A DNA stretch of 63,808 nt, counting the filler, from Octopus bimaculoides (Eukaryota): assembly GCF_001194135.2 (NCBI RefSeq). It is 6 parts of 6 records of this genome, joined end to end, with 100 filler letters (N's around TTAATTAATTAA, not from the genome) between each part and the next. Parts side by side here need not be neighbours in the genome. Positions count along the whole stretch, not along the records: positions 1 to 14,993 come from NC_068988.1; positions 15,094 to 23,373 come from NC_068993.1; positions 23,474 to 43,280 come from NC_068982.1; positions 43,381 to 53,289 come from NC_068987.1; positions 53,390 to 62,402 come from NC_068994.1; 1 more part is not named here. One strand, 5' to 3'. Position 1 is the stretch's first letter. Each line of letters starts with the position of its first letter. Positions 12,239 to 60,716 of the stretch are shown piece after piece. The notes beneath the pieces were generated by a model. That model was not told where the DNA came from. It ran no database searches and saw only the letters and a list, made by a program, of their open reading frames with translations. Position numbers and translations under genes: made by a program.

Positions 12239-12819
12239 NNNNNNNNNNNNNNNNNNNNNNNNNNNNNNNNNNNNNNNNNNNNNNNNNNNNNNNNNNNNNN
12301 NNNNNNNNNNNNNNNNNNNNNNNNNNNNNNNNNNNNNNNNNNNNNNNATACATACAAGAAGTTAGACGAAAACAGAGTAAACGGGAAACTAGACTAAAAC
12401 TTAGCGGACGGGAAATTAGACAAAGACATGATACACGGAATATTCGCAGCTAAGTTTTCCTCGTCAGTGAATGATGCAAAGTATTATAGCAGTTTCGCGC
12501 CAATTACCATTGAAACTGCTCAACTTTCCTGACACCAGTTCTTTTTATTAATCCACTGGGAAAAAGCTAACGAATGTGTACAAAGACAGAAACGAACAAG
12601 ACATTGTATAAATACAACAGATAAAAAGAATTGTGCATATATAACAGCACAGAGCCTTACGGCTATATACATTACAGTAAAAGGATAAGAGAAATCAAGG
12701 CAGGACGAGTTTCTCAAGTCATTTATAATAATTTGATTAGGGTAAGGTGAATTTGAAGCCTTACAGCTGTTTCTGGGATATCCTAAGTAATAAGCTAGGA
12801 TATATGTGTGTGTGTGTGT

Positions 12820-12990
12820 GTGCCTGTGTTTGTCCCTCACCACTGGTGTTGGTGTGTTTTCATCTCCGTAACTTAGCGGTTCAGTCGTAAAAAACAATAG
12901 AATAAGTAAAAATGTCCTGGGAGTGATTCATTCGACAAAAAGTTCTTCAAGCATGGCTGTAGTCTAAGGACTGAAACAAGTGAGAGGTAA
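12820..12990 (+). mobile_element. OK-type SINE, 3' half
   Basis: gtgtttgtccc..ccgtaacttagcggttc..aatagaataagt..gtcctggg..gactgaaacaagt. Confidence 0.75.
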
Positions 12991-13504
12991 AGGGTATATC
13001 TAAATAGGTATAGCTCTATGCAAATCTGTGACTATATAAGGATGCATGCAGACATATGTGTCGATAGGTCTGTTCGAATTTTCGATTTGCGAACAATAGC
13101 GATAAACAGAATACGAGAACTAATATAAATCAACTATTCAAAATTGATTACACATTTCGATTGTTATCACACTAGAAAATTCCTCCTCTTTATTCCGTAA
13201 TTTCAACACGAACAAAGAAAATACATACGAATTATTTGATGTATCTACAGGTGTGTACGATGGAGGCTTAATGATGCGATATTATAGGAATTTATATTCG
13301 AGGCCTTCCTTTTGCTTAAAACATTTCCTTCAATAAGAATTATTATTTGTAGCGGTGGGAGAGTCTTTGTAAAGAGTGAGTGGAAACAACAAAATCGGCT
13401 TAACGAGTCATGAGATTTCAGCGTGTAACAAATACAAGTATAAGTTTACTTTGAATAATGAGTAGCCTCTTGGCTATTTCTTGCTCCCAATATATATATA
13501 TAAA

Positions 13505-13544
13505 GGCGACTCGAGTTTCAGGGCTATTTCCCTTCATCATGGCC
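13505..13544 (-). ncRNA. Minimal type-I hammerhead ribozyme motif with a 1-nt core insertion; identical copy at 14043-14082
   Basis: 5'-GGC C(A)TGATGA AGGG-aaatag-CCCT GAAA CTCGAG TC^ GCC-3'. Stems I and II pair; stem III is the palindrome ACTCGAGT. Confidence 0.7.
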
Positions 13545-13641
13545 GGTATGACAATCTATATATGAAGGGAGCAAAATGTAACCACATGTGAATCGTTGGC
13601 GATTTTCTTCTTCCGTCTTCCCTTCTATTGAACTTTCCTCT

Positions 13642-13677
13642 GTTTCCGAAGAAGAGCGTCTGCTCGAAATGTTAAAC
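13642..13677 (+). ncRNA. Minimal type-I hammerhead ribozyme motif with U4C; identical copy at 14180-14215
   Basis: 5'-GTTT CcGAAGA a GAGC-gtct-GCTC GAAA tG TT^ AAAC-3'. Stem III is AACGTT with one CpG decay. Confidence 0.65.
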
Positions 13678-14656
13678 CATCTTTCTTTCCTTTCCTGAGG
13701 NNNNNNNNNNNNNNNNNNNNNNNNNNNNNNNNNNNNNNNNNNNNNNNNNNNNNNNNNNNNNNNNNNNNNNNNNNNNNNNNNNNNNNNNNNNNNNNNNNNN
13801 NNNNNNNNNNNNNNNNNNNNNNNNNNNNNNNNNNNNNNNNNNNNNNNTATATTCCTGCAGAACTAATGTGGGGTATAGAATATGGAATATACAATATATA
13901 ATATAATATACAATATATAATATAAAATAAAATAAAAATGGATGGCACCATGAAATAAAGTATTGAATGTAGATGAAATATTGAGTGTTCAATATAAAGG
14001 ATCAAATATATAAATATATAAATATAAATATATATATATAAAGGCGACTCGAGTTTCAGGGCTATTTCCCTTCATCATGGCCGGTATGACAATCTATATA
14101 TGAAGGGAGCAAAATGTAACCACATGTGAATCGTTGGCGATTTTCTTCTTCCGTCTTCCCTTCTATTGAACTTTCCTCTGTTTCCGAAGAAGAGCGTCTG
14201 CTCGAAATGTTAAACCATCTTTCTTTCCTTTCCTGAGGACGTGGTACATTACAGGAATCAAGAGAACCTATCAAGGTAAATACCGCATATATATGCTTAT
14301 TTACCTTGATAGGTTCTCTTATATAGATATCTGGTGAATAATAGCACTGGCATATATCGTAATTGACGAGAATCATCTAGCATGGATGCCAGAACCCCCA
14401 GATCATGTGATTTCAGTGTACTGTGCTTCTTCAATAGCAGGCAACGTGTGACCGTATATTGAGCCAAATCTCGCTGCCACGATATATAGCATATCTTTTC
14501 AGTCATTGATGTCGCGAATAACAATACATGTCGTCATTTCACTGTCGAATTTTTTCATTGAGTGTTTAACCAACAATGGTATGCAACAAATAATGTCAAA
14601 AATCATGCGATACCTATGCATATGTTACACATGCATATACATACACATACATCCAC

Positions 14657-14719
<63 letters not shown>

Positions 14720-14993: not shown

Positions 14994-15093
14994 NNNNNNN
15001 NNNNNNNNNNNNNNNNNNNNNNNNNNNNNNNNNNNNNTTAATTAATTAANNNNNNNNNNNNNNNNNNNNNNNNNNNNNNNNNNNNNNNNNNNN
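14994..15093. other. Assembly join 44N+TTAATTAATTAA+44N; same at 23374-23473, 43281-43380, 53290-53389, 62403-62502
   Basis: Identical 100-bp layout five times; the 12-mer has TAA in all six frames. Confidence 0.95.
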
Positions 15094-16034: not shown

Positions 16035-16960
16035 TGTTGTATAATGAAACAGCACACACCCTCGATAAAAAGTGGTAGTAACCAGCCATTATAAATAGCC
16101 AGTCGACACGAGATGGTTAGAAGGTCGAGATTACGTGTAGAATGTGCTGATAGTCGATCTGTGCTGATGTAGTAATCATGCCGTAATACTGAGTGTACGT
16201 CATAACGCTGTATCCTTTTCAGGACAGTATCACAGTACGACTAGGGGTCGTACAGTGCCAGATAGATCCTTCTTTCGACGTCTTCGGAATATAGCAATAT
16301 CTGTCAGAGTGACAACAGTCGTCAAAAGACAGATACAGCAGTAGCAAAAGACCGCTTTACAACAGTGGCGACGAGGAAAAACAAATTTACGCGGAGTGAA
16401 AAAAGAAGCATTCACATCGAGAGTTTAAAATAATTCACGTGGAAAATTAAATACCACGATAAAAAATCTTGTGCAAAAATCTCGTGTAAAATTCTTGTGT
16501 AAAAATCTTGTGCAAACATACGAAAATCGTTAAAATATGGAAGACTTGTTAGCTGCTTAAATTGTAAAAACATCAACAACAACAACTCAAGGAACAACGA
16601 GAACAACAACAAGTATTGCAGCAACAAATGTTACAACTGATGAATACATCTTCACTTGGCCGTGTGGCAAATTTCATAATCAAATTCAAATATGACTTTG
16701 AGGAAGGAGTAACCTTCGCGGCTTACTTTCGAAGATTCCAACAAAATTTTGAAAAAGAATGTCAGGATTGGACGGACGATACGAAAACGTGTCTAGTTTT
16801 AAGAAAGCTAGGGACAGCAGAGCAGAAGAAGTATAATAACGTCATATTGCCCTCCCGGCCAAAAAAGCGTCCGGTAAAAATTTCACCGACACAGTTGATA
16901 TTTTGCGCAGAACGTTTAGTGAAAAGAGCTCACTGCTTAATACTAGATGGAAATATTTAA
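16035..16960 (+). mobile_element. Ty3/Gypsy retrotransposon 5' part: LTR 16035-16364, PBS 16366-16377, gag fragment 16616-16960
   Basis: LTR bounded by TGTTGTA...TACAACA. PBS TGGCGACGAGGA complements the 3' end of metazoan tRNA-Ser(GCU), recalled as ...AUCCUCGUCGCCA. Gag-like FKYDFEEGVTFAAYFRRF...KTCLVLRKLGTAE...ILP. Confidence 0.85.
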
Positions 16961-17745: not shown

Positions 17746-17788
<43 letters not shown>

Positions 17789-17793
17789 AAGTC

Positions 17794-18720
17794 CTGACCA
17801 TATTGTCAAGAGGAACTCGTGAGGCAATTATTTAAATCTGTATTAAAAATTCTCCTCTGTGGCTGAATTTCATCCGATACAGATTAAGCCAAAATATCAG
17901 GACAACAGCAGATCAAAGGGAAAATGCAGCATCGTTCTTGCATCTTGGCAATGGAACATATGCAGCTCCACAAGATCTTAATCTTGCTGTTGATGACATA
18001 GAAGTGCCTCAAATTTCATGCTTTGACGGCTCTCTGGTGAGTGATACCTTCAACAATACATCTGAAGAAAACGGAAGAAGCAGAGTAATTCTTTCACCAA
18101 AGAACTCAGACTGCCTCCTGGTCAATTGAGAAGTTTTGAGACAACTTCCATGTGACTGCTGCACCTATTATAGTACAGATAAAGTTTTGACAGATGATTC
18201 TGCTGAGGCTGAGCGCTATCTACTTGAATTTCTAAACTCTTTGACACCATCAGGAGTGCCTCCTCATAAACTGAGTGTAAAATCCGGCTCAATAGCAATA
18301 TTTCTTCGTAAAATTTCTACCCAGAATATCACAAGACTGGAAGTAGTGGCTATACATCAACATTCAGTCGAGGCTTCCTTGATTAGCGGCTCACTAATTG
18401 GCAGACGTGGCCTCATACCCAGAATAAAGCTGGCTCCAAGCGACCTTTACATGCAATTCACCTTGAGGAGAACCCAGTCTCCTGTTCGTTTGTCATATGC
18501 CATGACTATTAACAAGTCACAGAGGCAGACATTTGAGAAGGTGGGAGATTGTTCTTACCTCAGCCAGTGTTCAGTCACAGGCAGTTGTATGTGGTATACT
18601 CTAGAGCCCGCAAACTTTCAGATGTAAGGGTTAAGGTGATGGAGACAGACAGACAGACAACGTAGGAGAAGAGGGCGAACTGTTACTAAGAACATTGTCT
18701 GCTGAGAGGTACTGACTTGA
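17794..18720 (+). pseudogene. Helitron PIF1-family helicase C-terminal relic
   Basis: One frame with two stops: IKNSPLW..L..NIR..LHLGNG..ILSPKN..VN*EVL..FLNSLTPSGVPPHKL..IPRIKL..RRTQSPVRLSYAMTINKSQRQTF; terminal TKNIVC*EVL matches the RepHel end motif TKN(I/V)VY.EVL. Confidence 0.92.
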
Positions 18721-18799
18721 AGGGGTGTCGTATTTTCAGAAATTCTGTAGATACTTGATTGCATTAAGTATGTGTCCTTGGTTTTTATATATATACTTT

Positions 18800-19171
18800 C
18801 TTTACTCTTTTACTTGTTTCAGTCATTTGACTGCGGCCATGCTGCAGCACCGCTTTTAGTCGAGCAAATCAACCCCGGGACTTATTCTTTGTAAGCCCAG
18901 TGCTTATTATAGCGGTCTCTTTTTGCCGAACCACTAAGTGACGGGGACATAAGCACGCCAGCATCGGTTGTCAAGCAATGCTACGGGGACAGACACACGC
19001 ACACACACACACACACATATATATATAAACATATATACGACGGGCTTCTTTCAGTTTCCGTCTACCAANNNNNNNNNNCATATATACGACGGGCTTCTTT
19101 CAGTTTCCGTCTACCAAATCCACTCACAAGGCTTTGGTCGGCCCGAGGCTATAGTAGAAGACACTTGCCCA
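18800..19171 (-). mobile_element. OK-type SINE, near full length, with internal microsatellite
   Basis: Reverse complement of 26775-27185; CpGs largely intact. Confidence 0.92.
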
Positions 19172-19885
19172 AGATCCCATATTAAATGTATTAAATGAAT
19201 ATCTTTCAAAAGAGGAAACTATCTATATATGAAATGTATTATACAGTTTTGTACATGTATAGGCCTATTGTTTTCTGTATTCATATCGGAGGAAACTGGC
19301 ATGGCTCCATGCTGAGAGGTGTAGTAGTACGTACTGATTGACACTGGCAATCTTTGTATACATGATGAACACTCCCAAGTATCTCTATGTGTTGTTTATT
19401 TTCCCAGTCACTGAGTAATGTATGTTAAAAAAGGATACAATTAATTGCTAAACTTTATGTATTTGTAAATAGAACTGTACAAAATATACGCAATTTTAGT
19501 ATTTGCTGCCTAAATATCTCATTCTATTATATATCTAGAGATTTTCATTACACCTTTCTTAAATGCATTATTTTTATACAACACATGTATGTAAAAACAG
19601 CTTATTCTTTACGCAGCATTCTATTAATCGGTTCGTGGAAAATCCGTGGGTCCCGCTAGTATACATAAATACACACACATACACACTCGCATTCACACAT
19701 ACACAGGCATGTACGAGCTGTATGTTAATTATGCTTATAAACATCACGTGTACAACAATGGATTCGTTTTATTTTGAAGCCCTCAAAATTAATAAACCTT
19801 CATACTTCATAATGCATCTGTCACAATACATATAGAGTCAATATACATGCATATGTACACACATATATGTAGATAGATCGATATA

Positions 19886-23373: not shown

Positions 23374-25913
23374 NNNNNNNNNNNNNNNNNNNNNNNNNNN
23401 NNNNNNNNNNNNNNNNNTTAATTAATTAANNNNNNNNNNNNNNNNNNNNNNNNNNNNNNNNNNNNNNNNNNNNTATATATATGTATATATATATATTTCT
23501 TTTACGTATCTAATATAGTTAGCAGGAAAACTTTTCATCAACTGTAATTATTCTTGAAATTTGGGAGTAAAACGTGCTTTTAGTTGGGTGACTTAAATCA
23601 ATAAAAAAAACGCAGGGAAGGGAGATAACTCATACAATCTTAACTGCCAAAATTTGGGTTGCTAAAAAGATACAGTTTAGAGGGAATGTTGACAGAGTGG
23701 AAGAGGAGAAATAATGAAATAAACTAGTGTGTGGGAATAATAAATGAGAGTGAAAGGCGGTAAAAAGGAATAACTGAAAGAAGACAAAATGAAACAAATG
23801 AAGAAAGTTAAGGAAATGAACAAAAATATAATCTTTTGCTTTCTGAAGTGCACTACGTTCATATACACGCACACATGTGTGTGTATATAGTTATATATGT
23901 ATATGTGTGAGTATTTTTTTTATAAAAACATGTCTCGTACGAAACAGTTGATATTAAATATTGCCTTGCGTATGGGATATCTAGCATGTAGTAAAGCAGA
24001 TACTAGTGTAATACATGAAGTATTGTTGCTAGTACATTTGAAATGATTGATTGGTAGAATCATAAGATCGTCGAACAAATGCCTTGTGGTATTCGTTCCG
24101 ACTTCCTGCAACCTGTGCTCAAATCCTGCTGAAGCTAATTTTGTCGAGAAATTGAAATACCTGTTGAATATTGAAATAGATTTCTTTCTTTCTTTTTCTC
24201 GCTCTAAGAACCGGCCACTTATATTTTTCAAGACAAGCACTTTAATTCTAATGCAGCGGAAGAATGCAGCCGCCGAGGCGCGGGGGAGAAGGTAACACTT
24301 CGTGGTGATGAGCATATTTCCGCTGATAGCAATACAGTAACTATATTCTCTTTTATCGACCTCGGAGGAAATGGAAGACAGAGTCGGCAGTGTTCTGAAC
24401 TCAAATTGTAGACTGAAAACTTTTTTTTTAAATATCTTCATTTTGTATTTCTTTTTATACCTAAGTTTGTATTTGTTTTTATACCTAGGTTTCTTTGTAG
24501 GAATATCATATCGATACGAGTCCCTGACTGGTTCTTTATTTTCTCGAACTTACGCAAAAACGAAGGCAATGCTGAATACAGAACCTAACTAAATACAAAA
24601 AACATTTTGTCTTGTATCCTAATGATCCTGTCAATAGCAACAGATTGACAGACTTACGACCAAATACATTCTAACTATGATTCGCCTCAGCCAAATAGTG
24701 TATCCAGGGAATCATCATTCTGGAAGTTCTTTCATAAGACAGTAAGATGAGAATTGTGAGAGATTTCACTGCTATTTCTAGCCAATCCAACGATCAACGA
24801 GAAGCCATGTTTGTTGGCTTGACATTATTTTTTTATCAAATCTTAGTCTTGCTGTCTGCTGTGGTATAGATGTTTATTTACTACACGGTAAATAAATATT
24901 ACTAAACCGAGGAAGGACTGACAAAACTGTTGGCCTCCTGGATTTTATTTGACAGCGATAAAATTTCTAAACGACTTTAAACATAGCGATAATTGTTATT
25001 GGCGTCAATTTAAATAAATAAATAAATCCCGAGCACCTGCTTCATTAACATGTCAGGTTATACAGTGAGTTCAATGTCCGTATGTATTCAACGCCCTTAA
25101 AGCACCTATCGTCCTCAGGGGTAGTGTATTAACCTTTCAGACTGGGATATTGTACAATAGTGGTTAACTCTTTTTATGAAGCGGTGAACCATTTTTTCTT
25201 TCCAGTGAGTAGCCAGTATTTGTATTTTCATATTAAATAGCTGAATAGCCATTTGTAAATCGACTTTTTAAAGACACTGTAAATAGTTGATAAAAGTTGC
25301 GTTAAATCTTTTATTCTCTCATTTCCTTCTTATTTTCTATACTTTTAAAGAATTTTATTTTAGTTTCAACAGCTTTTGTCTGTTTAATACCTCTATCCTA
25401 ACTCTATAAAGGTGGAGTTGTACTTCCGATACGTTTTTAAAAGGAGCAGTTAAAGAAAATAGACAGAAAATTCATTCAAATTTTTATATAAATAAAGATT
25501 CGAATGTCATTGAACCACACGTCCGTAATAAGAATAAAAAAGCAGTGCCTGGAGCTCCTTTAGGTCAAACAGGCACCAGTTGAATGTTTCGACTCTATAT
25601 ATTGTAACACGGACAAAATTAGATTGACGCTAGTCGTTAACGCACGAAGTGACATTCGTGAAAGAGTTTGAACCAAGCTCAGCAAATTTAGAAATAATTT
25701 TTTAATGAGCAAATGAGGAAGTCGTTATGCGATCATTGTCTCAGCCAAAAACAAAAGGCGTATGTTCCTCAGATGACATCCGACTAAAATAAAAGAAAGC
25801 GCTCATTGGACAATATAGTTCCTGATACACAAGACGATGGACTGGTCACGGTTGGAACACATTTCATCATAGATCTGCTCAATCAGGGCTTACAGGGGGA
25901 TAAACAACAGCAA

Positions 25914-26078: not shown

Positions 26079-26201
26079 TTAATATTTATATCTATGTCAA
26101 GTTTTATAAAAGAGAACAGTTTAACATTTAACTGAAGGATTTCGCGAGATTTTTTTAGTGATTTTTTAGAGATTTTTAAAACTTTTACAAGGAAAATGTC
26201 A

Positions 26202-26245
26202 ATAGCGACTTCGAAGTTTCGTAATGCTTGCCTTCATCAAACCAT
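26202..26245 (-). ncRNA. Decayed minimal hammerhead motif (C3U, damaged stem II)
   Basis: 5'-ATGGT tTGATGA a GGCAAgcaTTAC GAAA CTTCGAAG TC^ GCTAT-3'. Perfect 10-nt palindrome ACTTCGAAGT; stem I has 5 bp with two G.U. Confidence 0.55.
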
Positions 26246-26294
26246 CTGATAAAGATGAGAATGATGATGATGATGATGATGATGATGTTTGCGT

Positions 26295-26444: not shown

Positions 26445-26665
26445 ACCATTCGGGCGGCGAACTGAAAGAATCGTTAGAGCACCGGACAAAATGCTTAGTG
26501 GCATTTTGTCCGTCTTTACGTGCTGAATTCAAATTCCGTCGAGGTCTACTTTGCCTTTCATCCTTCTGCGATCGATAAAATAAGTACCAGTCGAGCACTG
26601 GGGCAGAGGTAAATAACTTGCCTCGTCCCCTTGCTGGCCTTGTGCTAAAATTTGAAGCCAATTCT
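26445..26665 (+). mobile_element. OR-type SINE
   Basis: ggcggcgaactgaaagaatcgttagagc..gaattcaaattccgtcgaggtc..gataaaataagtaccag. Confidence 0.85.
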
Positions 26666-26774
26666 ATCCCGACCATTAAGTAATTAGCAACACGAAATTA
26701 AAGAATACGCTTCGTGAAGTTAAAGAGATTTCAATCTTTTAATTATAAAAAAAAAAAAAAAGAAATCTTTAATA

Positions 26775-26950
26775 AGGCGTAGGAGTGGCTGTGTGGTAAG
26801 AAGCTTGCTTACCAACCACATGGTTCCGGGTTCAGTCCCACTGTGTGGCATCTTGGGAAAGCGTCTTCTACTATAGCCTCGAGCCGACCAAAGCTTTGTG
26901 AGTGGATTTGGTAGACGGAAACTGAAAGAAGCCCGTCGTATATATATAAA

Positions 26951-26982
<32 letters not shown>

Positions 26983-27185
26983 CGTGTTTGTATCCCCACT
27001 CTCACTTGACAAACGATGCTGGTGCGCTTACGTCCCCGTAAATTAGCCGTTCGGCCAAAGAGACCGGTAGAATAAGTACTAAAGCTTACAAAGAATAAAT
27101 CCTGGGGTCGATTCGTTCGACTAGAAGTCAGTGCTCCAGCATGGCCACAGCGAAAAATGACTGAAACAAATAATAGAATAAAAAA
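26775..27185 (+). mobile_element. OK-type SINE, full length; another 3' half follows at about 27200-27392
   Basis: tRNA-like head, central (TG)n, 3' stem-loop tail. Confidence 0.92.
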
Positions 27186-28010
27186 AATAGAGAGATGTGT
27201 TGGTGTGTGTGTTTGCATTGTGTTTGCCCCTACCACCGTTTGACAACCGGTGTTGGTTTCGTTATGTCCATGTACAAGAGACCGATAGGATAAGTACCAA
27301 ACTTTATAAACGTAAGTACTGGGGTTGACTTGTTCGACTAAATCCGTCAAGGCGGCGCCCCAGGATGGCCACCGTCTAATGAATGAAACAAGCTAAGTGA
27401 TGTCTATGTGCTTATGTATGTGTATGAGTGTATATGCGTTTGTGTATATTTGTCTAAATGTTTCAATGTGACGTTACAGAATTGATGTTTAGATTATTTA
27501 TTATTCATATCAATTCTATATTTCTTTCAGAAAAACATGACGAGTCTTGGAAATATTTTCTAATGTGATGCTGACTTACATGATAACAAGTTTTAAAATA
27601 AATCATTCGTTCCGAGTTATTGTCTTCTTCTCATGCGAAATGGAGTGATTATAATCAACATTAATCATTGAGAGTGGTTAATGTGAGATACATGAGAATT
27701 GCTGTAAACGTGGGAAATATTGCTTTATGAAAGATTAGTGTGTTAAGAATAGAAAATTATACATAAAAGAAATATATATACAGGGTGTCACGCAATGTAG
27801 TATACAACTAATAGTATGTTGGTATTTGATACTATAAATAATTTCGTATGAGCACCATAGAACATTGTTAAACTCCTGGCGAGTCGGATCTGTTGCTTCA
27901 CTTAACACACATTTGACATTATTCCTCATTTATACGATATCAAAATAGTGAGTAAAGTAGTGAGGTTTACTTGACTGATTTGACCTTGGTAGGCAGATTT
28001 TATGCAGTAA

Positions 28011-28479
28011 CCCTTTCGATACCAACCCGTCTGAAACCGCCTCTGGCTCTGTAGTATAAATGTCTTGCTTTCATAAGTTCTCATTTAAAATCTTCCACCA
28101 AACCTTAGTCACAATTTATGCTCCTAACACTAAGTTTTTTTTTTTTTACTAAATTCTTTGTTATATTTAAAATTAATTGAAAGAAACACAGATCATCTCA
28201 ACAGAAATATGGTAACAAAAGGGTTAAATATATATAATAGAGAAACAATTCTTAACGCTTTTGATAGCAGCCTGGCTGAAACTGGTTCTGGCTTTGTAGT
28301 ACAAATGTCTTGTTTTCAAAAGTTTTGAATTAAAATCTTCCACCAAACCTTAGTCACAATTTATGTTCCTAACACTAGCTTAATAATAACTAAGTCTTTT
28401 TTTACTAAATTCTTTGTTATATTTAAAATTAATTCAAAGAAACACAGAGCATCTCAACAGAAATACGGTAACGAAAGAG
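28011..28479. mobile_element. Two tandem piggyBac-type MITEs (28011-28223, 28256-28479)
   Basis: Ends (g)TAA|CCCTTT..AAAGGG|TTAA; the two bodies are clearly homologous. Confidence 0.8.
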
Positions 28480-28530
28480 TTATCTACTTCAAACTATATC
28501 CAACCATTTTAAATAAAGAATAAACTAGAT

Positions 28531-35222: not shown

Positions 35223-35742
35223 GCAGGAATTTTTGAATACAACGACTTGTTGAAAGTGTTTTTATTTATTTATTTATTTTGTTGTTGTTTACAATACCCG
35301 AAGAAAGGGCAGTGTCCATGACCTTCGCGGGCTCACAGCAACTGGTGGACATTGGTGCTATTAGAAGTTCTTTTGAGCTATATCAGGTCAATACTTGCGG
35401 GAAGACACGTGTCAGAGGGAGTTCCAGACGCCCGATCCTCCAGGAAAGGAAACCAAGTCCTAATAGTTAGCGCATAATTTGGGAGTTGGACACTAAAAGG
35501 TTGATGAGAGAAAAGAGTGGGTCCAGAATGATTGAACGGAGATGGTATATGGCCAGCCAGCTCCAAAGAGCAGAAGTTATTTCGTACGGTAGAAAAGATA
35601 ATTATTACCTTTTGAGGTATTTATTCCCATGCTGGCCACCTGATAAGATCAGTATTTTAAATAACGATCTTATCCTTATATATATATATATATATATGTG
35701 TGTATATATTGGAAGGTTTGGAGGTGATGTACAGGAATTATA

Positions 35743-35921
35743 TATTAGAAAAAATAATAAGGCACTCAGATATCTGGATAGTTGTACATTTACAGATATA
35801 TCTGAAGAACCTACAAGAATAGGTGCAAGCGCTAATATTTATAAAACATGTGACAGATTAATAAAAATCTGTAAATGTACAACCATCTAGATATCTGAGT
35901 ACCTTATTATTTTTTCTAATA
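35743..35921. repeat. Fold-back element: 55-bp inverted arms (3 transitions) around a 69-bp loop
   Basis: 35743-35797 vs reverse complement of 35867-35921. Confidence 0.92.
35798..35838 (+). ncRNA. Minimal hammerhead motif (A13C) in the fold-back loop
   Basis: 5'-ATAT CTGAAGA ACCTA-caagaa-TAGGT GcAA GCGC TA^ ATAT-3'; stem III is the palindrome AGCGCT. Confidence 0.65.
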
Positions 35922-36955
35922 TATATATATACATACATACATGCATACACACACACAGACACGTGTGTGTGTGTGTGTATTATGTGCAAACAACTTTCAG
36001 ACGCAAGTACTACCAGCTGAAAGCTCCAAATGCAGGACAGTAGCAAGTTTATGGGGTCAACATGACAATTACAGAACCCATGAACGTTTTCCGGTTTTAC
36101 GCATTTTGTAGAGGTTTGTGTAGGTCTATGCTTTTTCATTGTACATTCCCACCAGGCATCTTTTAACAACTTCTGTTAGTATCTTTTAACAATTTCTCCC
36201 ATGCTTGGAATTTTAGTAATTTACAAACAACTTCATCATAAGATGCTAAATCCAGCGGAAATTTAAATACAGAATGGACTGTGTTTAAGTTAGTATAGTA
36301 AAATTTAGTCTTTAATGCCACACATGTAAAAAAAAAAAAAGGCCTTGTTTATATTACTAGGAGAAAAAATATTTTATTAGTGAGAAAGCATCATTGCACA
36401 TTTTACAAAAAGGATATAACTATATTTGTTTAACTTAAAGAATAATTTAAAAAAATTAAATTGTAATTTGATTGTCCGTCTGAAGTATAGAATCATACAA
36501 ACATGTTTATATTCGTTTTAAAGGAAGTTACGAACTCTGCAATTTAAACTTTAATCTCTTCCGGTATCATTTACATTCTCTAATGTGCGCTGTTAATAAT
36601 AATAATTAATTGTCAATTTATTAATTAAACACTGCTCAAAATACAAAATAAATAACATCATTAATTTTTTTTTTAGAAGGACCTCGTTAATATGAAGTTA
36701 TTTTAAAATTTATAAATTCAATCGTTTTCTATAGCGAACAAACAAACTTCAGCCCTGCCTACCAACGGACTTAGGTAACCAACAATGGATTCAGTTACTT
36801 TTTTTTTCTTCTTCTGATAATCTGGCGTCTATGTAAGAATTACCGCATAGCATACTTACTGTACGCTATTGAAACACGTATAAGGACTATGTAATTTATG
36901 AGGCCATAATAAAGCCTTTAACCGAATCTCTTGTTTTGTTCTACTCTTTATACGT

Positions 36956-43445: not shown

Positions 43446-43873
43446 GTATGTATACACATGCACACATGCATGAATAAGTACATAAATGCAAAACAAGAAG
43501 GAAAAAATAGTACTCAGAAAACAAAGGTAGAATGATATGCTTTACTTAAAGCTGAAAACATCTTCACAAACTGTTACTCAGCATTTCACATTGCCATTCA
43601 TTAAACAGTTTTGATTATACTCATTTTTGGCTGTTATTCAGTATGATGACAACTGTCCATCGAATGGTAACATATAACTCAGAGTAACAGTTTATGAAGA
43701 TATTTTTAAAGTAGTTGTATGCTGCCAACTTAATGTGACAGTCCCCTGAAGGGAATAATACTACTGTTGGTTAGACCTAGGAAGCTGCACCGCTTCCTGT
43801 CAGCCTTGACACATTTCCTGTGTCCTTATGTTTACAAGGGGGAGACAAGCACCTCCACCCAGCTAAGCCTGCA

Positions 43874-43916
43874 TCCAGAGACATGTTTCTGAGTCTTTGC
43901 TCGTCATCAGTCTGGA
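43874..43916 (-). ncRNA. Minimal type-I hammerhead ribozyme, core intact
   Basis: 5'-TCCAGA CTGATGA cGAG-caaaga-CTCa GAAA CATG TC^ TCTGGA-3'. Perfect 6-bp stem I, GUC site, palindromic stem III ACATGT. Confidence 0.85.
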
Positions 43917-43989
43917 GTAGCATGACTTGCTAGTCGAAGATGCCCGTCAAGCTCTTGTAAACATATAATAATTCTAGTGAAAGTAAATT

Positions 43990-44402: not shown

Positions 44403-44659
44403 GCACACACACACACACACATATACGTGTGTGTGTGTGAGTGTGTTTATAATTATACCATATGTTACATATGTATTATATCACACCTTGATACTATGTG
44501 GACTTAGATCCCTGTTGACAGTCTGCTGGTATTTATAGAATGTTAAACACTTTCAGTATGCAAATTAGACAATCCTTCATAGAGTAACTGCTGTATTTGT
44601 TGAGTATATTAACAGTTTGGCTGCTTGTCTCTCTGGAGATTGTCAGAATAAGGTAGATT

Positions 44660-44700
44660 CCTCTGATGAGAACCCAATAAGGTTTGAAAATCAATTAAGG
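44660..44700 (+). ncRNA. Minimal type-I hammerhead ribozyme, core intact
   Basis: 5'-CCT CTGATGA GAACC-caataa-GGTTT GAAA ATCAAT TA^ AGG-3'. Both stem defects revert to perfect pairs by restoring CpG (GGTTCGAAA, ATCGAT). Confidence 0.75.
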
Positions 44701-45104
44701 CTGTTTATCATTTTTTTTCCAGTCTGCGGAGAAATGGCTAAAATTTGACCTGCTTATAATTATACCACATGTTACATATAAAGAGAGAGAGGTACTTCAG
44801 GGCTATCTTTCAGAGGTGGTACTATTATTATTGTTGTTACTTTTGTCCTTGTGGCTACCCTCTGTACCTACAGTAACACTGTTGTAGTTATCATCATTAT
44901 TGTTGTTACTTCATGGGGCATTGCTGGTGTTGTTGATTTTATTGTTGTAGTTGTTGTTTTTGTCTTTGTCTGAGCTTCCTTCTGTAACTTGCTGCTGCCA
45001 CTATATGTGTAGAAGTATTAATAGTAGCAGCAGCAGAAGTAGTGGTAGTCGTAGTAGCAGCAGTAGTAGTATGGATAGTCAGCAAACAGTCCAGTTAACA
45101 TACC

Positions 45105-45228: not shown

Positions 45229-45793
45229 ATTTCATAAGAATTTAGAAACTTTGAAACAAAAAAGTCAGGCAACCCTCGGCTATTTCTACACAAAAGGTTT
45301 TAAAACCAATATCTACATGCTGTTATTTATAGCTTTATTTGCTTTGAAATTCACCGTTCCAAAAAAAAAAAAAGAATTTTTATTAAGATGATTTTGTGGT
45401 TAAGAAGTTTGCTTCCCAACCATGTGGTTGTGATTCAGTCCCATTGCAGAAAAGGTACATTGGGCAACTATCTTCCACTATAGCCTCCACAAAGCGAAGC
45501 AAAACCTTGGGTGTGAATTTGGTAGACGGAAACTGAAGAAGTCCATTGGACACACACACACACACACACACATTTATATGATATATAATTATATACAAGA
45601 AGTGGAATGGCAATTACCTCAAACTTTCAGTTTACTAGCCTTCATCAGCCAGTCCAGTGGTGACAAGCAGGCAGAAACTTTGATGTCACTGCTACCCTGT
45701 CCTTGTAAAAGTTACAAAAAAGTACTGAGTAATTCTTCAGTTTAATATTAAATTGTTTTATTATAACTCAACATAAAAACAAACAAATTGTTG

Positions 45794-46202
45794 CAGGCAT
45801 GGCTGTGTGGTAAGTAGCTTGCTTACCAACCACATGGTTCCGGGTTCAGTCACACTACATGGCATCTTGGGCATGTGTCTTCTACTATAGCCTCAGGCCA
45901 ACCAAAGTCTTGTGAGTGGATTTGGTAGACGGAAACTGAAAGAAGCCTGCCGTATATGTGTGTGTGTGTGTGTGTATGTGTGTGTGTGTGTGTGTGCGTG
46001 TTTCTGTGTTTGTGTTTGTCCCCCCACCATCGCTTGACAACCAATGCTGGTGTGTTTACATCCCCATAACTTAGCAGTTCGGCAAAAGAAACCAATAGAA
46101 TAAGTACTCAGCTTACAAAGAATAAGTCCTGGGGACGATTTGTTTGACTAAAGGCAGTGCTCCAGTATGGCCACAGTCAAATGACTGAAACAAATAAAAG
46201 AA
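45794..46202 (+). mobile_element. OK-type SINE, full length, CpG-depleted; further diverged 5' halves at about 45404-45548 and 48056-48180
   Basis: gcaggcatggctgtgtggtaagtagcttgc..gactgaaacaaataaaag. Confidence 0.92.
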
Positions 46203-47129
46203 TATATCATTATGATGGTTGAAAATTCAGCCTGTATGGCTACACTGTATCAAAAAAATATCATTGAGAACTTTTTATACTAATCAGTATGCACTTCTCT
46301 GTGACAAAATTTTTAATGAAAATTCAATTAAAGTCAGTTACAGTTGTATGTGAATCATAAGATTACAACATGCTTATAACAACAACAAAAATCTACAAAT
46401 ACCTAACAATTCAAAACTATGGTAGAAAATACTTGCCTAAGAAGCCATTTAATAGATATTTGGTAAATTCAGTCTGTGAACAGAATATTGAAAATATTCA
46501 AATTTTTTCTAAACTTCAGTACATAACAGCTCACTGTTGATATCAAAATTTCAATGATGGAACTTAGCTTCATTATTAAAACTAATTCATTCTTTACAGG
46601 GTGAATTTGAAAAGTTTAAAAAAATAAAAGACAGATCAGGAAGACAAATATATATTTCATGAACATGCATTTATAAATTCAAGCGTACTTTTAGGCAGAT
46701 AAGTCTTCATAACTACCAGCATATGCAAATATGTGGAAACATTATTTGTACTGATAATACTTAATGCAAATAAACACAGAACTTTAGTGGAAGAATTTTG
46801 TCCAAATATTTTATCTCAGTGTAAGAAATGAGAGAGAGAGAGAAAGAGAGGGAGAGTAGAAAAGGAAAAAAAAGAGAACTAGAGAGACTAGATACATATG
46901 AACATGTATGTGCGTATGTGAGTGTGTTTGTGTTTTGTGTGTGCATGTGTATGTGTGTATGTGTGTGGATGTGCATATGTGTATGTGTGTGATGGAGAGA
47001 AAGAAAGAGAAGAGGCAGAATGAAGAATAGGATAATAATATGGTCGCACTTTGTCTTCAACATTGTTTAGATATGGTTTCTATTTTGGGGCTGACTGGGT
47101 AGAGTGGGATGTGTACAAAACTTCATTAT

Positions 47130-51785: not shown

Positions 51786-51992
51786 GCACACACACACATA
51801 CACACACACACATATATATATATATACATAGTATATTTGCCACTTAAATGCAGCTAACCACTAAGGGTGAATGCTACTGTAGCTTGTAGTCCCAGGAGAA
51901 CACCTTCTCCAGCTGGTTATTGACACACTTTCTGTGCCCTATCAGTTTTTGCAAAGGGAAGTCATCCTTCCCATCGTCGACCTGACATGATA

Positions 51993-52037
51993 TGCATGGA
52001 CCCGAGTTTCTGGGTATTTACCCTTCGTCAGCGCACA
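51993..52037 (-). ncRNA. Minimal type-I hammerhead ribozyme, core intact, stems decayed
   Basis: 5'-TGTGCG CTGACGA a GGGT-aaat-ACCC a GAAA CTCGGG TC^ CATGCA-3'. Stem I restores to TGCGCG/CGCGCA on undoing three CpG decays. Confidence 0.75.
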
Positions 52038-52229
52038 ACAATCACCGGTCTTCAATGTGAAGGGGTCCCAATGCAAATACATATATATCCTTTTTCCAGT
52101 GAAGAAAAGTCACTGATCTTGAAAAAGTGTAAACAAGCAATAATAAATCTCTGAACAAGGTATAAACTGGAAAAAGGATATATATGTATTTGCATTGGGA
52201 CTCCTTCACATCGAAGACCGGTGATTGTT
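52037..52229. repeat. Fold-back: 64-bp inverted arms (2 mismatches) abutting the hammerhead
   Basis: 52037-52100 vs reverse complement of 52166-52229. Confidence 0.92.
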
Positions 52230-52701: not shown

Positions 52702-53254
52702 GTATATTCATTATTTGTTTTATTAGTTACAGTGTTAGGGTTATGGTCATACTGGAACATGTGTGTGTGTGTGTGCATGCATATATGTGTGTGGGTACAT
52801 GTACATAATATTTTTGTTGACAGTGACTTTGAAGTTTTGCCAACTATACATCTTATTTAACAGCATCAACAAGCTAAATACTTGGCAAAATTTCCAAGTC
52901 AATGTCAACAAGATTATAATAAATATTAGACTATACACCTGTATTGAGTTCTTTTGTAGTCAATGTCTGTTGTGTTTATCGGTTAAAAAAAAAGCATACA
53001 TGTTGAACTCTGTGTGTTTGCATGTGTGTGTGTGTGTATGTGTGTGAAAGTGTGCATGTGTGGCTTTCCTTTATTTTATAGACACCATAATTTATATGAA
53101 GGCAAATATAATAATGATTAAAATATGGATTTGGCATGTTTCTTACTATGCCTACTGGTTTATAATAGAAACATAATCGAAGTATGTGTGTGTATATATG
53201 TACATATGTACATACATATATATATATATATGTGTGTGTGTATGTGTGTATGTG

Positions 53255-53288: not shown

Positions 53289-53924
53289 TNNNNNNNNNNN
53301 NNNNNNNNNNNNNNNNNNNNNNNNNNNNNNNNNTTAATTAATTAANNNNNNNNNNNNNNNNNNNNNNNNNNNNNNNNNNNNNNNNNNNNCTGACATACAT
53401 CCCAATATATATTCAAAATTTCAAGTTCCATTTTGTGGATATATATACGTTGTGTGTCAGTATATGTGTGTGTAATTTCGCGAATTTTTTCTCCTTGTTT
53501 TTTTCACATTAAATTTCGATATAATTGTAATCTATACCTTCTGAGAAGTATTTGTAGAAAATTTTATTAAAATTATACACATTTTTCATGAAGTTATCAG
53601 GAAACAAAGTCGGGGACAAAATTGTGTGGGTCTGCCGTTTTATGCACCTTTGAGTTCTTAAACACCCTCTGTAACATGCTGGTTGGTACCATAACATAGT
53701 TACAAGGTGTCCGGTATTGTTCCTCCAACCGTATGAACTCTTAGCCAGGCAATTTCAGGACAGGAAACCTGGAGGTTCTAGCCATAAACGATGCTTCACT
53801 TTCAATATATTCACACAGAATATTATTTCATTGTAAACAATCGTGTAACTGTTAGGAGATATGATAGTGAGGATGGGTAATTAAAAATCGTACATGAAAT
53901 ATTCCTTTCTACTATAAGAGAAAG

Positions 53925-56819: not shown

Positions 56820-56866
<47 letters not shown>

Positions 56867-56934
56867 GTGTATATATAGTTTTGTATATATAAAGAGATAT
56901 ATATAGTTATGTACATATATATACATTGATACTT

Positions 56935-59900
56935 TGATAACTTAATAGCACCACCTGGCGAAGTCATTCAAATCAGGAATCGGACATGGGCCACTCGAGA
57001 AGAGAGTTATTATTTACTAAGACATATCAGGATTTCTTGAAGGAATTTGTCCAAAGTATTCTTGAACTATATGGGGTCTGTTTTTACTTTAATATGTTTT
57101 AGTGTAATGTTAAAGAGAGCAGGGCTAGTTGAGGTGAAATAATTGTGCCGTATTGTTGTTATGTGATGCGAGTATGATTTATGTTGTATGCGGATAGCAC
57201 AGGGCCCAAGTCTTGGGTGTATTTTAAAGGTGATGCCAACATCATTTGGGCAATGCTGATGAAATATTTTCCACATCATGTAGATGATGCAGCGCTCAGG
57301 GCAGCGTTGGAGAGAATAAAGCCTAAGCTTTTCTAGTCGACTCCAATAGTCAAAGCCTGTCAAGCCATCTATCTTTTTTGTAATTGACCTTTGAGGTGCT
57401 TCAAATTTATGATACTTTATTTTGTGTGGGGAGACCACAGCGAACAACGGTATTCAAGATGGGGTCGGGCAAAAGTAGAGGAGAGAAGGATAATGGTGTG
57501 GATATCTCTCGACTGGAAAGTTCTGAGAATCCAGGAACACATTCTGCGGGCCATGTCAACTTTTCTGTTTATATGAGCGCCCCAGCTTATGTTGTCCACA
57601 ATTACTCCCAGGCCTCTGATGTTGGATGCCACGAGAGTTTCACTTGAAGGAAGGGAGTATGGGAGTTTCAAGGTATTCTCTTTTCCGAAGTGGATTAACT
57701 CAAATTTGTCCTCGTTCAGCAGCATATCATTCTTTTCCGCCCATTGGATGACAGCCAGTAGATCTGACTGAAGACATGTCCGGTCACCCACTTCATTGAT
57801 GACCTTCTGGATCTTGGAATCATTTGCAAAGATTTTTATGTTGCTGTGCTTGATTATGTCAGTAATGTCATTGATGTAGATGATGAAAAGAAGCAGGGCC
57901 AACATAGTACCTTGTAGAACACTACTACTGACTTTGACTGGGCTTGATTTTACTCCTTCGACTACAGCGTGTTGGGTTCTGTCTCTCGGGAAACATTTGA
58001 TCCATTTTAGTAACTTTCCAGAGACACCAATGTTGGATAGTTTTTTCAAGAGAAACTTATGATCAACCCTGTCAAAGGCCTAGCTAAAATCAAGGTAGAT
58101 GACATCGGTGTTGGGGCCCTTTCCTAAAGCTCTCAAAATGTCATCAAAGTAATGCAGGAGTTGCGTTAGGCAGTTCCTTCCGTTACGGAACCCATGTTGG
58201 TTGGGGTTCAGCAATTTGTTGCTTTCAAGAAAGTGAGTTATTCGTGATCTCACCACCCTCTCAAATACCTTGATGATATGAAAGGTGAGCGAGATCGGCC
58301 GGTAGTTCACTGCAAGGGATTTGTTTCCCTTTTTGAAAACCGGGACAACAGACTGGGACAGAAAGTTTTTAGGAATATAGCCAGTATCCAGTGAGTTCCT
58401 CCACAGATTAGGAAGAGGAGATGCAAGTTGGTGTCAACACACTTTCAGGACACAATCAGGGAACCTATTATGGCCTACTGCTGAATTGGGCTTAATTTCG
58501 TTTATTGCCGCTAAGATATCAGGGGCGCCAAACGTTATGTCCGATATAGTGTGTTGAGGATTAACATCACTGATACAGTCCAGATCGGTCATACCAGGAT
58601 TGCTGAAAACAGAGCAGTACTGTTTCTGCAGTATCTCACCCATGGTTTTGGCATTATTTTGGAGAGTGCCATTTTCATCAATTAGAGGGCCAACAGTGGA
58701 GACAGTGACCTTGTGTTTTTTTCGCAAAAGAGAAGATCACTTGGGGTTGATTTTGATTTTCTCAACGGCCCATTTCTCCACAGCTATTCTTTGGTAATTG
58801 ATGATGATCTTCATATATTGCTGGAGGTTATATATTTTTTATTCGAGCAGGGCGATAGCCGTCGAATGTATGTGGTTGTTGGCAGTATTTTAGTTTGTTA
58901 ATTCTTTTCTTCGTTCTTTTTATTTTTCTGATAATAGTTTTTCTATTTTGGGGAATTCTGTACTTAGTTTTCTTCACAGGTCTTGGTGAGGTGTGTTTTG
59001 CTCATATGTTTGTCAGTGTCTACAAATATCTGCCAAGATATTTTGCTGCAGGAGGAGGTGTATGCATGTGTGAAAGACCAGTCAACATGTGATAAGCCGT
59101 TCATGATTGCGTTCCAGTCGGCATCATAGAGATCCATGTTATCAAATGGATGGGTTGGAGAGAGGTCTCTAGGGTTAGCTTTCGGCTGATGGAATCTCAG
59201 GTTACAGAGAACCCTGTCATCATCTGAAAGAAATGATTATACCACTGTAATATTATGTATAGTGTTAGTGTGGTTACTAGACACAAGGTCTAAGATGTTC
59301 TGATATCTTGCTGGTGCAAGGACAAGTCGGGACAAGAAAAACTCATTCATAAAGTCGAGAAGTGACTCTACTGCTTCTTTATCAGCAGTTGAGGTGGGAG
59401 TTCCTGGTTTCAAACTGTTTGTAGACCAATCAATACAGGGTAGATTAAAATCTCTTGTCGTAATTAGTTAAATAGAAAGGCACTGTTGAATAAAGCATTT
59501 AATGCTGTTGAGGCATTCTTTAAAGCGAGGTACGGGTGTTTGAAGTGGCCTATAGAGTCCAACTACTATTAGGTCGTTGGTTTTGTTGTGCACGATGACT
59601 GATTCAGAGTAGCCATTTGGGAATGTGATATTTCCATCTGCCGAAAAGGAATCATACAGGAAAATGACAGTTTCACCCTTCCTTCTGTCGACTCGATCCG
59701 CACGGATCTGCAAAGATCGTTGTGAAATTCCTCACTTTCACGTCGGCTTCCAAGTGGGAGTTATCAAGGCGAGTTTCGGTAAGAATGAAGAAAGGAATAT
59801 GGTGTGGATGGTTCTAACCCAATCCTCAATGAACTGGATCTTCCATTTCTGTTCATTGATGGAGGGACTGACACTGTGCATTGAAAAGAAATCTAAAGGC

Positions 59901-59945
59901 TAGCGTAGTGGCGGGTTTTGACTGTTGCAAAGGGCTTTTCTCTGA
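56935..59945 (-). mobile_element. CR1-clade LINE, 5'-truncated, near-complete decayed ORF2 (APE endonuclease + RT)
   Basis: APE pieces (FILTETRL, IRADR, VGLYRP); linker VGPLIDENG; RT NYRPISLT..KVFER..QHGFR..DVIYLDFS*AFDRVDH..LQGT.L..LFIIYINDI..FANDSK; C-terminal RPHLEY..WSP, LYSLQR. Several stops and frameshifts. Confidence 0.95.
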
Positions 59946-60653
59946 TTGTGTGTTAGTGACAGTAATGTGGGGAGATTTTTTGGCATATTTAAAAAATGTA
60001 TTAAAGTGAAAATGACTTTAAAAATATGGTAAACATGTTACCATATTTCACAGGTAAATATTTTACTGTTCGTAACCTCGGTGTGAAATTGTTTTTTACT
60101 AGGTATTTTTCGAGCTCAGTCAACGTATCTCAACTCCAAAGATTTGGCTACTATTTCTAACACGCCCTGCTACCACGTAACAGCTATTTGCGATAAAGGA
60201 CTCGAAATACCTGTCAAGTGGTAGCAGGTCATGCAAGAAATAGCAGCCAAATATTTCCTTCTCTGAAGAAAAGAACCGTTTACGCGTGATTTCGATGTCA
60301 CATTCGTTGAAAGCATGCGAAATAACCTGGAAAAGACAAAAAAAAAAAAAAACGAAACAAAACTCCGTTGCTGGAAAACTCAGAATTTCCCGGTGACCGA
60401 ACGGATCACGGGTAGTCTAGTATATATATATAAATACTTATAAAGATTTTATCCTATGTTTAAATTGTAAATTTAACCGGAATATATTCAGTGCTGAATT
60501 TTATTCTGAATAAACACGTGTACTGAGATGCAATTCGAAAAGCCCGCCTCTTACATAGATATATAGGTGTAAACAATTTCTATGTTCTATGATGGATACA
60601 TGTGGTGTTCGTCTGGTATGTTGATTTTGTTTATTTTTATATGTCTTGACTAT

Positions 60654-60716
60654 GCTTGCACTGACGAGGAAAATGTGCATCTCCTGCACTAATTACGAAA
60701 TCATATGATATGCAGC
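60654..60716 (+). ncRNA. Type-I hammerhead ribozyme with longer stem II, core intact
   Basis: 5'-GCtTGCA CTGACGA G gaaaat GTGCA-tctcc-TGCAC taatta C GAAA TCATATGA TA^ TGCAGC-3'. Perfect 10-nt palindrome ATCATATGAT as stem III. Confidence 0.7.

Follow-up and report, generated by a model that had tools for sequence, protein, structure and literature searches.

Minimal hammerhead motifs in Octopus bimaculoides DNA as probable truncated ends of Penelope-like elements

Introduction

The stretch of Octopus bimaculoides DNA analysed here (the window; 63,808 nucleotides, filler included, joined from 6 parts) raises the question of how hammerhead-like ribozyme motifs came to be scattered through it on both strands. 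Minimal hammerheads (min-HHRs) are known from the ends of Penelope-like elements (PLEs) of many animals, where they are abundant and heterogeneous (Cervera and de la Pena 2014, PMC4209133), and the same paper describes dual min-HHRs on opposite strands together with solo copies. Coleoids have an expanded complement of Penelope elements (PMC8967140, PMC13282606), and the annotation of O. vulgaris includes 31 recently active Penelope-like families (PMC13282606).

Results

Nine hammerhead-bearing spots were recognized in the 64-kb window. The motifs are real and most are damaged: against the published min-HHR consensus (PMC4209133), four cores are intact and seven further motifs are altered or partial. 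A first-pass annotation had assigned them to minimal type-I hammerheads of the Penelope/retrozyme kind, an assignment supported by the match to that consensus and by the order CUGANGAH, stem II, GAAA, palindrome and UH with a short stem I. Every motif that it listed was recovered in place, including the four fully intact CUGANGA/GAAA/UH cores at 43880-43910 (-), 44663-44697 (+), 51999-52031 (-) and 60661-60710 (+), although two decayed motifs, 45612-45650 (-) and 45655-45691 (+), had been overlooked.

The shuffled controls proposed at that stage bear this out for the window, with descriptors that were all composed after the motifs had been seen. Descriptor B (intact core, stems of at least 3 pairs with 1 mismatch permitted, palindrome with at most 1 mismatch) gave 4 matches where shuffles averaged 0.01 and 0.05, and 4 or more were reached in 0/200 shuffles of both controls. 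The looser descriptor D gave 7 matches, 1 of them a duplicate, against 0.86 and 0.97 (0/200 per control). Each of the two narrow descriptors had a single match, equalled in 1/200 shuffles for A and in 15/200 and 13/200 for C, the latter not significant. A search of Rfam with E values up to 10 returned no hammerhead family among the 150 listed of 152 matches, which were only of the microsatellite-driven miRNA type. As judged from the primary structure, an intact core is not an intact fold: the base of stem II is unpaired at 60661, and the A preceding GAAA is left unpaired at 43880 and 51999.

The stems had been said to differ completely between loci, which proved wrong, for several loci have flanks in common. 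Based on 100 mononucleotide shuffles per pair, 43880 is alignable with 51999 over ~190 nt (z 15.5), 26205 with 45655 over ~170 nt (z 15.4), and 14046 with 51999 over ~50 nt (z 8.1), and on sequence grounds the eight loci first counted are not eight unrelated inventions. Families other than A and B, described below, have at most one second copy inside the window. A circular permutation relating the 44663 unit to the tail of 26205 was not accepted (z 4.6 in AT-rich DNA). Stem III, said to be always palindromic or nearly so, is predicted to form a favourable self-duplex in 6 of the 8 palindromes modelled; at 44663 and in the window's copy of 13646/14184 the self-duplex energy is positive, leaving no usable palindrome.

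In the region at 13.5/14.0 kb, a family A copy (13460..13590, -) carries the hammerhead 13508-13540 with a C-A-UGAUGA core, which caps a predicted extended stem I with a TA tract in it; its arm score is equalled by 1/500 shuffles and its duplex by 1/200, and the predicted fold is symmetric between strands. Head to head with it lies a family B hammerhead (13646..13673, +) with a CCGAAGA core (U4C). The interval 14027..14238 is a 212-bp exact duplicate (100% identity) of 13489-13700, with an N gap between them, and repeats both motifs (14046-14078, -; 14184-14211, +). A true tandem duplication was rejected, since the spacer is unrepeated and the read contig 14208-14623 is unbranched and at single-copy depth; the two copies, counted earlier as duplicates among independent loci, are probably a single locus assembled twice. 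The family B repeat body (14110..14237, +), which was also found in the organisms labelled A and B, has a sharp 5' boundary near 14110, and beyond 14237 other copies run on. At that point the window has a 12-nt inverted tail fragment (14238..14249, -), the reverse complement of the continuation in other copies, followed by a hairpin at 14260-14320.

Read depth over the two families (14.05-14.24 kb) reaches 143,000 and 600,000, compared with 42.8 in the unique flank, or roughly 3,000- and 14,000-fold over single-copy depth. The earlier suggestion of abundant repeat families is thereby borne out for A and B, the two of about six families whose copy number was measured, and these show the dispersed high copy number characteristic of truncated PLEs. 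In family A, the most abundant, most copies apparently have one additional A, placed between C3 and U4, and about 40% of family B copies are U4C. A very abundant family would thus seem to have spread with its catalytic core altered.

Among the remaining loci, 12758..12776 (-) is the 3' half of a decayed hammerhead, comprising the end of stem II, GAAA, a palindromic stem III, a UA site and stem I', with no recognisable 5' core. The decayed hammerhead at 26201..26246 (-) has U at position 3, a weak stem II and a 10-nt palindrome, and its tail, to about 26085, is akin to 45655. At 35739..35925 (+), a TA-flanked palindromic insertion has 59-bp inverted arms with 3 differences around a hammerhead (35802-35834) in which GCAA replaces GAAA. 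The intact-core hammerhead 43880-43910 belongs to a unit (43715..43965, -) in which it caps a predicted 55-bp stem-I rod (43827-43965) and is followed by a tail of small hairpins; this unit is homologous to that of 51999. The intact-core hammerhead 44663-44697 lies in a 307-bp unit (44450..44781, +) whose edges are a 29-bp, 93% direct repeat, either a target-site duplication or a terminal redundancy. The two decayed motifs that had been overlooked form a head-to-head pair (45612..45691), both starting at the edge of stem I. The intact-core hammerhead 51999-52031 (unit 51830..52229, -) combines a predicted rod with a tail that runs as far as a TA tract (about 51830). Its 64-bp 5' part recurs inverted (52037-52100 / 52166-52229; 2 differences), in an arm that ends just short of the ribozyme. 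The last intact core, 60661-60710 (60657..60714, +), has a 10-nt palindrome and a long stem II that is unpaired basally; a search for its relatives within the window found none.

Four motifs (43880, 44663, 51999 and family A) are predicted to cap a long stem-I rod. The duplex at 43880 (-60 sense vs -42 antisense) and the rod at 51999 were each equalled by 0/200 shuffles; at 44663 the corresponding values were 1/200 for sense and 84/200 for antisense, so that the rod is predicted on the sense strand only. Extended stems I were rejected at 60661 (470/500 shuffles as good), at 26205 (485/500) and in family B (146/500). In the ribozyme strand of 43880, 44663 and 51999 together, G-U differences outnumber A-C differences 23:4, and A-to-I editing was considered as the origin of the excess. 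A G-U lean is also seen in shuffles (0.5-1.8), and two palindromes without a ribozyme are likewise skewed (3:9 and 0:4). The whole 307-bp unit at 44.5 kb does not exceed shuffles in folding (z 0.09), and the long rod did not emerge from RNAalifold as a structure held in common.

The reported lack of a PLE reverse transcriptase (RT) or GIY-YIG domain in the window was corroborated: 0/386 segments, out of 615 stop-free segments, match either, and custom profiles, which lean to one PLE clade, gave a best E value of 0.07. The endonuclease pieces of L002 escaped Pfam, and a homologue search with one of them gave 56 candidates, none significant. A tblastn search of the window with 150 PLE-type proteins yielded 5 short matches (best E value 0.012), judged to be noise. 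Within the window we found neither a linked ORF for telomerase-like RT plus GIY-YIG, the trait of autonomous EN+ PLEs, nor pLTR direct repeats flanking a body, the sole direct duplicate being the probable assembly artefact. Mariner fragments and a LINE RT are present in the window, whose SINE and microsatellite composition makes a cephalopod origin plausible.

A pattern like that of family B matched two metagenome contigs from another organism, in both cases just downstream of an ORF end that matches a profile built from its relatives (E values 2e-50 and 1e-19); RVT_1 plus GIY-YIG occur in 3/7 relatives tested. BLAST found no match between the two contigs and the window, and only the short motif is common to them. 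In viral contigs, neither the family B pattern nor a SINE pattern had a match. RNA reads over 13936-14650 showed no pile-up of ends at the predicted cleavage sites and no listed RNA joints, and RNA depth was zero over the unique flank 14248-14367 and 14464-14650 in 2 runs sampled to about 6%. A search across sequencing runs listed none of RNA, a result that carries no weight as to expression.

Discussion

We regard it as probable that the motifs are hammerhead-bearing ends (pLTR pieces) of several PLE families, with short derivatives, which were copied into AT-rich or TA-repeat sites by PLE RT and endonuclease encoded elsewhere and are now mostly decayed. The PLE enzymes would insert copies at such sites; reverse transcription would begin 3' of the ribozyme, in the tail, and end early, often near stem I or 60-190 nt upstream, and occasional fold-back would create an inverted arm. 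From the literature, ancestral ribozymes would have cleaved the element RNA weakly, as dimers formed through the palindromic stem III; most copies in the window would not be capable of cleavage. The inverted arms, the TA-tract neighbours and the one long direct repeat fit truncated PLE ends. An inverted 5'-truncated adjoining copy with extension at one end was found at 4/9 loci (51830-52229, 45612-45691, 35739-35925 and 14238-14249), of which the first, with ribozyme and tail one-sided, and the next two fit the PLE structure of PMC8557442 and PMC3846280. The consensus match, the enrichment over shuffles, the read depth of families A and B and the two metagenome contigs also favour this reading. 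Against it, none of the motifs in the window has a PLE ORF linked to it, the metagenome contigs come from another organism and have only the short motif in common with the window, RNA reads show no ends at the predicted sites, and the rods and the direct-repeat-bounded 307-bp unit would suit retrozyme monomers equally. The dedicated non-autonomous elements first suggested may instead be truncated ends of autonomous PLEs, and the suggestion that repeat annotation would miss them is to be weighed against the 31 families already annotated in O. vulgaris.

It is unlikely, though worth weighing, that 43880, 44663, 51999 and family A are instead solo non-LTR retrozymes, i.e., self-paired RNAs of 270-310 nt cut by the hammerhead from tandem arrays elsewhere, circularised and reinserted by a PLE enzyme. 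Such an origin is consistent with the rods predicted at 43880, 51999 and, in sense, 44663, with the G-U excess, with a unit size and long direct repeat like those of PMC7229834, and with the existence of solo monomers (bioRxiv 10.64898/2026.07.22.740005). However, no tandem array with a period >33, and no hammerhead-bearing tandem repeats of 150-450 bp, were found in the window; the motifs are minimal, yet PMC7229834 assigns canonical type I motifs to retrozymes; and the z of the full unit, the G-U lean of shuffles and ribozyme-free palindromes, and the RNAalifold result also speak against it.

We give little credence to the palindromic units being MITE-like DNA transposons with captured hammerhead relics. 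While 35739-35925 bears near-perfect 59-bp terminal inverted repeats with TA tracts on either side, and mariner fragments occur in the window, the ribozyme at 51999 is not enclosed by the inverted arms but continuous with one of them, both halves at 45.6 kb are ribozymes, and terminal inverted repeats are absent at six other loci. Equally improbable is that the host kept some intact motifs to cut pre-mRNA or non-coding transcripts: four cores are intact despite patchy flank alignment among related copies, but no host genes were recognized in the window, and the unique flank at 14 kb, in a read set that covers 13936-14650, has no RNA depth. Chance matches in AT-rich, repeat-rich DNA, at ~0.9 per shuffled window with the loosest descriptor, could account for one of the weakest motifs (the 12759 half or 35802), but as the origin of the whole set they are refuted by the enrichment, the flank homology and the read depth, in which the family B palindrome is made whole again by the majority letters of other copies (14208 T>C, 88% of depth), and we consider them scarcely credible.

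Returning to truncated PLE ends, the hammerhead class is already known and the chief value of the motifs is therefore in annotation, as stumps that mark several PLE-type families which Rfam does not see. PLE insertion in vitro can dispense with hammerhead cleavage (PMC11167929), and PMC8557442 raises whether PLE ribozymes merely ride along. Family A is the one lever on this open question of their role: its altered core, beside normal-core relatives (51999), makes a direct cleavage comparison possible. We tentatively propose, at somewhat under even chances, that family A is a young family of ~ten thousand copies, absent from a related species, which amplified with an A insertion separating C3 from U4, beside a family that is ~40% U4C. 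Such cores could be new variants that work, thanks to rescue by a long stem-I rod and by dimer formation; alternatively, they would show from within a genome that amplification of the PLE type needs no ribozyme cleavage. If the proposal is true, either outcome bears on the purpose of PLE hammerheads.

Comparison with known systems

The density and sequence diversity in the window are what PMC4209133 describes for many animals; less ordinary are the long stem-I rods capped by four motifs and the core variants of families A and B. The motifs resemble its pLTR hammerheads in the short stem I, the extra base after A9 and the palindromic stem III, and its families in being numerous and heterogeneous, with solo copies predominating and pairs on opposite strands; the U3 and AGAAA variants also occur in the text of its Fig. 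S3. Cephalopods are absent from its Table S1 and Fig. S3 text, no ORF is linked here, and the consulted parts contain neither long stem-I rods nor an A that separates C3 from U4. In the portion of the cephalopod literature covered, hammerheads appeared only as 235 Rfam hammerhead_1 loci in giant squid (PMC6962438); Lunse et al. 2017 or its supplement may have examples.

Inverted 5'-truncated insertions of EN+ PLEs (PMC8557442, PMC3846280, PMC11167929) share the head-to-head inverted arms, the one-sided extension and the AT/TA-rich surroundings, although 35739-35925 is tail to tail, the rarer arrangement according to PMC3846280, and the extension at 51999 is about 200 nt, against tails of 30-40 bp. 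Animal non-LTR retrozymes (PMC7229834; bioRxiv 10.64898/2026.07.22.740005) are similar in their non-coding units of 170-400 nt, type I hammerhead, self-pairing as predicted here around four motifs, long target-site duplication when present and solo monomers, but differ from the window in tandem arrays and in canonical instead of minimal motifs. With respect to the core, U4C has been recorded in a viroid, with reduced activity in vitro (Perreault et al. 2011, PMC3088659), and saltern sequences in the same report have short insertions near C3 with impaired cleavage; the consulted part of that work has no high-copy animal repeat in which an A between C3 and U4 predominates, as it appears to do here.

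Hammerhead motifs and their relationships

Every hammerhead motif listed by the first-pass annotation is present in the window; its observation proved largely right and its interpretation right in kind, while the importance was overrated. With the duplicate counted as one and two decayed motifs at 45.6 kb included, the 58,289 called bases contain 11 motifs, one of which is a half, spread over 9 loci. A generic intact-core descriptor matches at 43880–43910 (-), 44663–44697 (+), 51999–52031 (-), and 60661–60710 (+). Dinucleotide-shuffled controls, as that annotation had proposed, averaged 0.01 and 0.05 matches in two sets of 200 each, and no shuffle in either set reached four. A looser descriptor gave 7 matches against about 0.9 expected (7 reached by 0 of 200 shuffles in both sets) and two narrow descriptors gave one match each, one of these not above chance, all descriptors having been composed after the motifs were known. 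No hammerhead model occurs among the 150 of 152 Rfam matches listed for the window. An unpaired-looking A lies directly 5’ of GAAA at 12758–12776, 43880–43910, 45655–45691, and 51999–52031, and may be a family trait; the Fig. S3 text of PMC4209133 includes one AGAAA entry.

Kinship was assessed by pairwise local alignment of the loci, with 100 shuffles per pair. The motifs starting at 43880 and 51999 share an alignment of about 190 nt that runs from the core into the 3’ tail (z 15.5). For 26205 and 45655 the aligned stretch is about 170 nt (z 15.4), and 14046 matches 51999 at z 8.1. Weaker matches, at z 3.4–4.6, connect 26205, 45625, 45655, and 14046. By this method no partner was found in the window for 35802, 60661, or 12759. 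From these alignments, the motifs of the window fall into a handful of families.

Families A and B

Family A carries the hammerhead at 13508–13540 (-), with a duplicate at 14046–14078 (-), and family B that at 13646–13673 (+), with a duplicate at 14184–14211 (+). The sequence at 13489–13700, which ends at an N gap, equals that at 14027–14238. In another individual, a contig that opens with the final 31-mer of the duplicate reaches 14623 without branching or differences, and its depth is that of single-copy sequence. A branch would be expected there if two genuine copies continued differently, and the pair is therefore probably a single locus that was assembled twice; the contig bears on the right junction, a TA tract at the left one being masked.

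Reads were placed on 13936–14650 at 80% likeness, which covers these two families only. In run X1 the unique flank had a depth of 42.8, and the summed depth came to about 143,000 for the family B ribozyme (ratio near 3,300) and about 600,000 for family A (near 14,000); such a ratio is not a copy number, and the families are therefore graded only as thousands to ten thousand, which upholds for these two the claim of abundant repeats. In organism B (run X15), family B again has high depth and family A none at 80% likeness; family A is thus young or diverged beyond that limit. The 5’ boundary of family B, near 14110, is sharp and in RNA reads follows TA-rich sequence; other copies extend past 14237, and the reverse complement of this extension is window 14238–14249. 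Another repeat, at 14368–14460, stands at about 50 times the unique depth in both organism A and organism B.

At position 4 of family B, U accounts for 60% and C for about 40% of X1 depth (U 59% in X15). As the stem III CpG is lost in only 12% of depth, U4C, the state of the window copy, looks like a subfamily trait. In family A, position 7 is C in 99% of depth, no substitution or gap at 14078 is among the differences listed, and by depth arithmetic at least 65% (X1), 86% (X21), and 76% (X22) of coverage at 14074 continues through 14080–14091, past the insertion. From this binned depth the majority core appears to be C-A-UGACGA, with the proviso that placing reads on the window’s own copy favours copies resembling it.

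In X21 and X22, two runs of one study of which about 6% was read, RNA reads map to families A and B in either direction, and 97% continue into other sequence, which fits passive read-through of many copies. No end pile-up is listed for either family in these runs, ordinary RNA-seq being a poor test for ribozyme ends.

Coding context

Pfam was searched with 386 of 615 stop-free segments, namely each of the 237 that lie within 1.6 kb of a motif and 149 of 157 longer ones elsewhere, leaving out shorter, distant segments. None of the 386 matched GIY-YIG or a Penelope-like element (PLE)-type RT. The matches comprise a decayed LINE of the APE-RT type (56900–59820, -; RVT_1 E 1.7e-9, Exo_endo_phos_2 E 2e-4; nearest proteins about 52% identical), a mariner transposase fragment (61879–62400, +; HTH_48 E 1e-13), a DUF7083 fragment (16568–16957, +), which we take to be gag-like, and a Pif1 helicase piece (18130–18624, +), possibly from a Helitron.

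A family-B-like pattern search gave two metagenome contigs from another organism, L001 and L002, in both of which the motif lies just after the ORF end; 3 of 7 tested relatives of this ORF carry RVT_1 and GIY-YIG. Because Pfam found 0 of 4 endonuclease pieces in L002, profiles were built from 150 relatives of its ORF. These detect both contigs strongly and gave no window match below E 0.07, although they may miss other PLE clades. The absence of Penelope RT and GIY-YIG, as first annotated, was thus borne out by both searches. Through L001 and L002 the motif type is tied to PLE 3’ ends; the window’s own families are not.

Other repeats include a SINE-like unit of about 400 bp with an internal CA tract (at least 10 copies, including 18794–19180, 26775–27190, 43990–44405, and 45792–46204), a second family (26453–26667, 32080–32275, 34763–35200, and 38015–38228), and two tandem copies, 83% alike, of a unit of about 230 bp (28008–28482), where the descriptors give no hammerhead. 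The SINEs of the window suggest an octopus genome. Paired 44-N runs around a 12-base spacer (14994–15093, 23374–23473, 43281–43380, 53290–53389, and 62403–62502) were read as an assembly or masking artefact.

Anatomy and probable origin of the loci

At 51.8–52.2 kb, a 64-bp segment 5’ of the ribozyme recurs as an inverted copy with 2 differences; only one arm runs on into ribozyme and tail, and the tail stops at a TA tract. At 35.7–35.9 kb TA tracts flank a pair of 59-bp inverted arms (3 differences) with the ribozyme inside them; at 45.6 kb two ribozymes stand head to head, facing from their stem I edges, and at 44.45–44.78 kb a 307-bp unit is bounded by a 29-bp direct repeat. Most probably the loci derive from PLE families, as ends that are truncated and in part inverted, together with short derivatives, inserted in trans by PLE RT and endonuclease. 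Such insertion is suggested by this anatomy and by PMC11167929; the ribozymes would cleave as dimers, to judge from PMC4209133.

The main rival, solo retrozyme monomers, is unlikely for the loci at large and may be right for units bearing a long predicted stem I. Four motifs cap such a rod, with arm scores reached by 0 (43880), 1 (51999), 1 (13508), and 3 (44663) of 500 shuffles; it was not supported in three other tested motifs (60661, 26205, and family B). On the ribozyme strand of 43880, 44663, and 51999, G-U exceed A-C differences by 23 to 4 (binomial p 1.6e-4), for loci picked afterwards and with shuffles leaning the same way by 0.5–1.8; two palindromes without a ribozyme are likewise skewed. 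The 43880 and 51999 tails have small hairpins at matching places, and RNAalifold on the two kept the first hairpin and the stem I base and did not recover the long rod; in 16 of 51 base pairs both partners had changed, a weak signal when only two sequences are compared. Palindromes without a recognisable hammerhead lie at 43555–43706, 52805–52920, 60138–60256, and 14260–14320. The first directly adjoins the end of the 43880 tail and has its better pairing on that same strand (9 G-U vs 3 A-C); it may belong to that unit.

Since no PLE ORF was found and the tandem test failed within the window, the loci were filed neither as autonomous PLEs nor as retrozymes; truncated PLE ends and their derivatives remain our preferred reading.

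Comparison with known systems

PMC6962438 reports 235 Rfam hammerheads in giant squid, and an O. vulgaris repeat paper (PMC13282606) gives Penelope-like families, the word ribozyme being absent from it. No description of octopus hammerhead families was found in the literature searched, which covered few subscription journals or repeat databases. The window motifs belong to an already known class. PMC4209133 describes many animals, two molluscs among them, whose genomes each hold thousands of heterogeneous minimal hammerheads; compared with these PLE hammerheads, the window families are likewise heterogeneous and minimal, a handful of families within the window.
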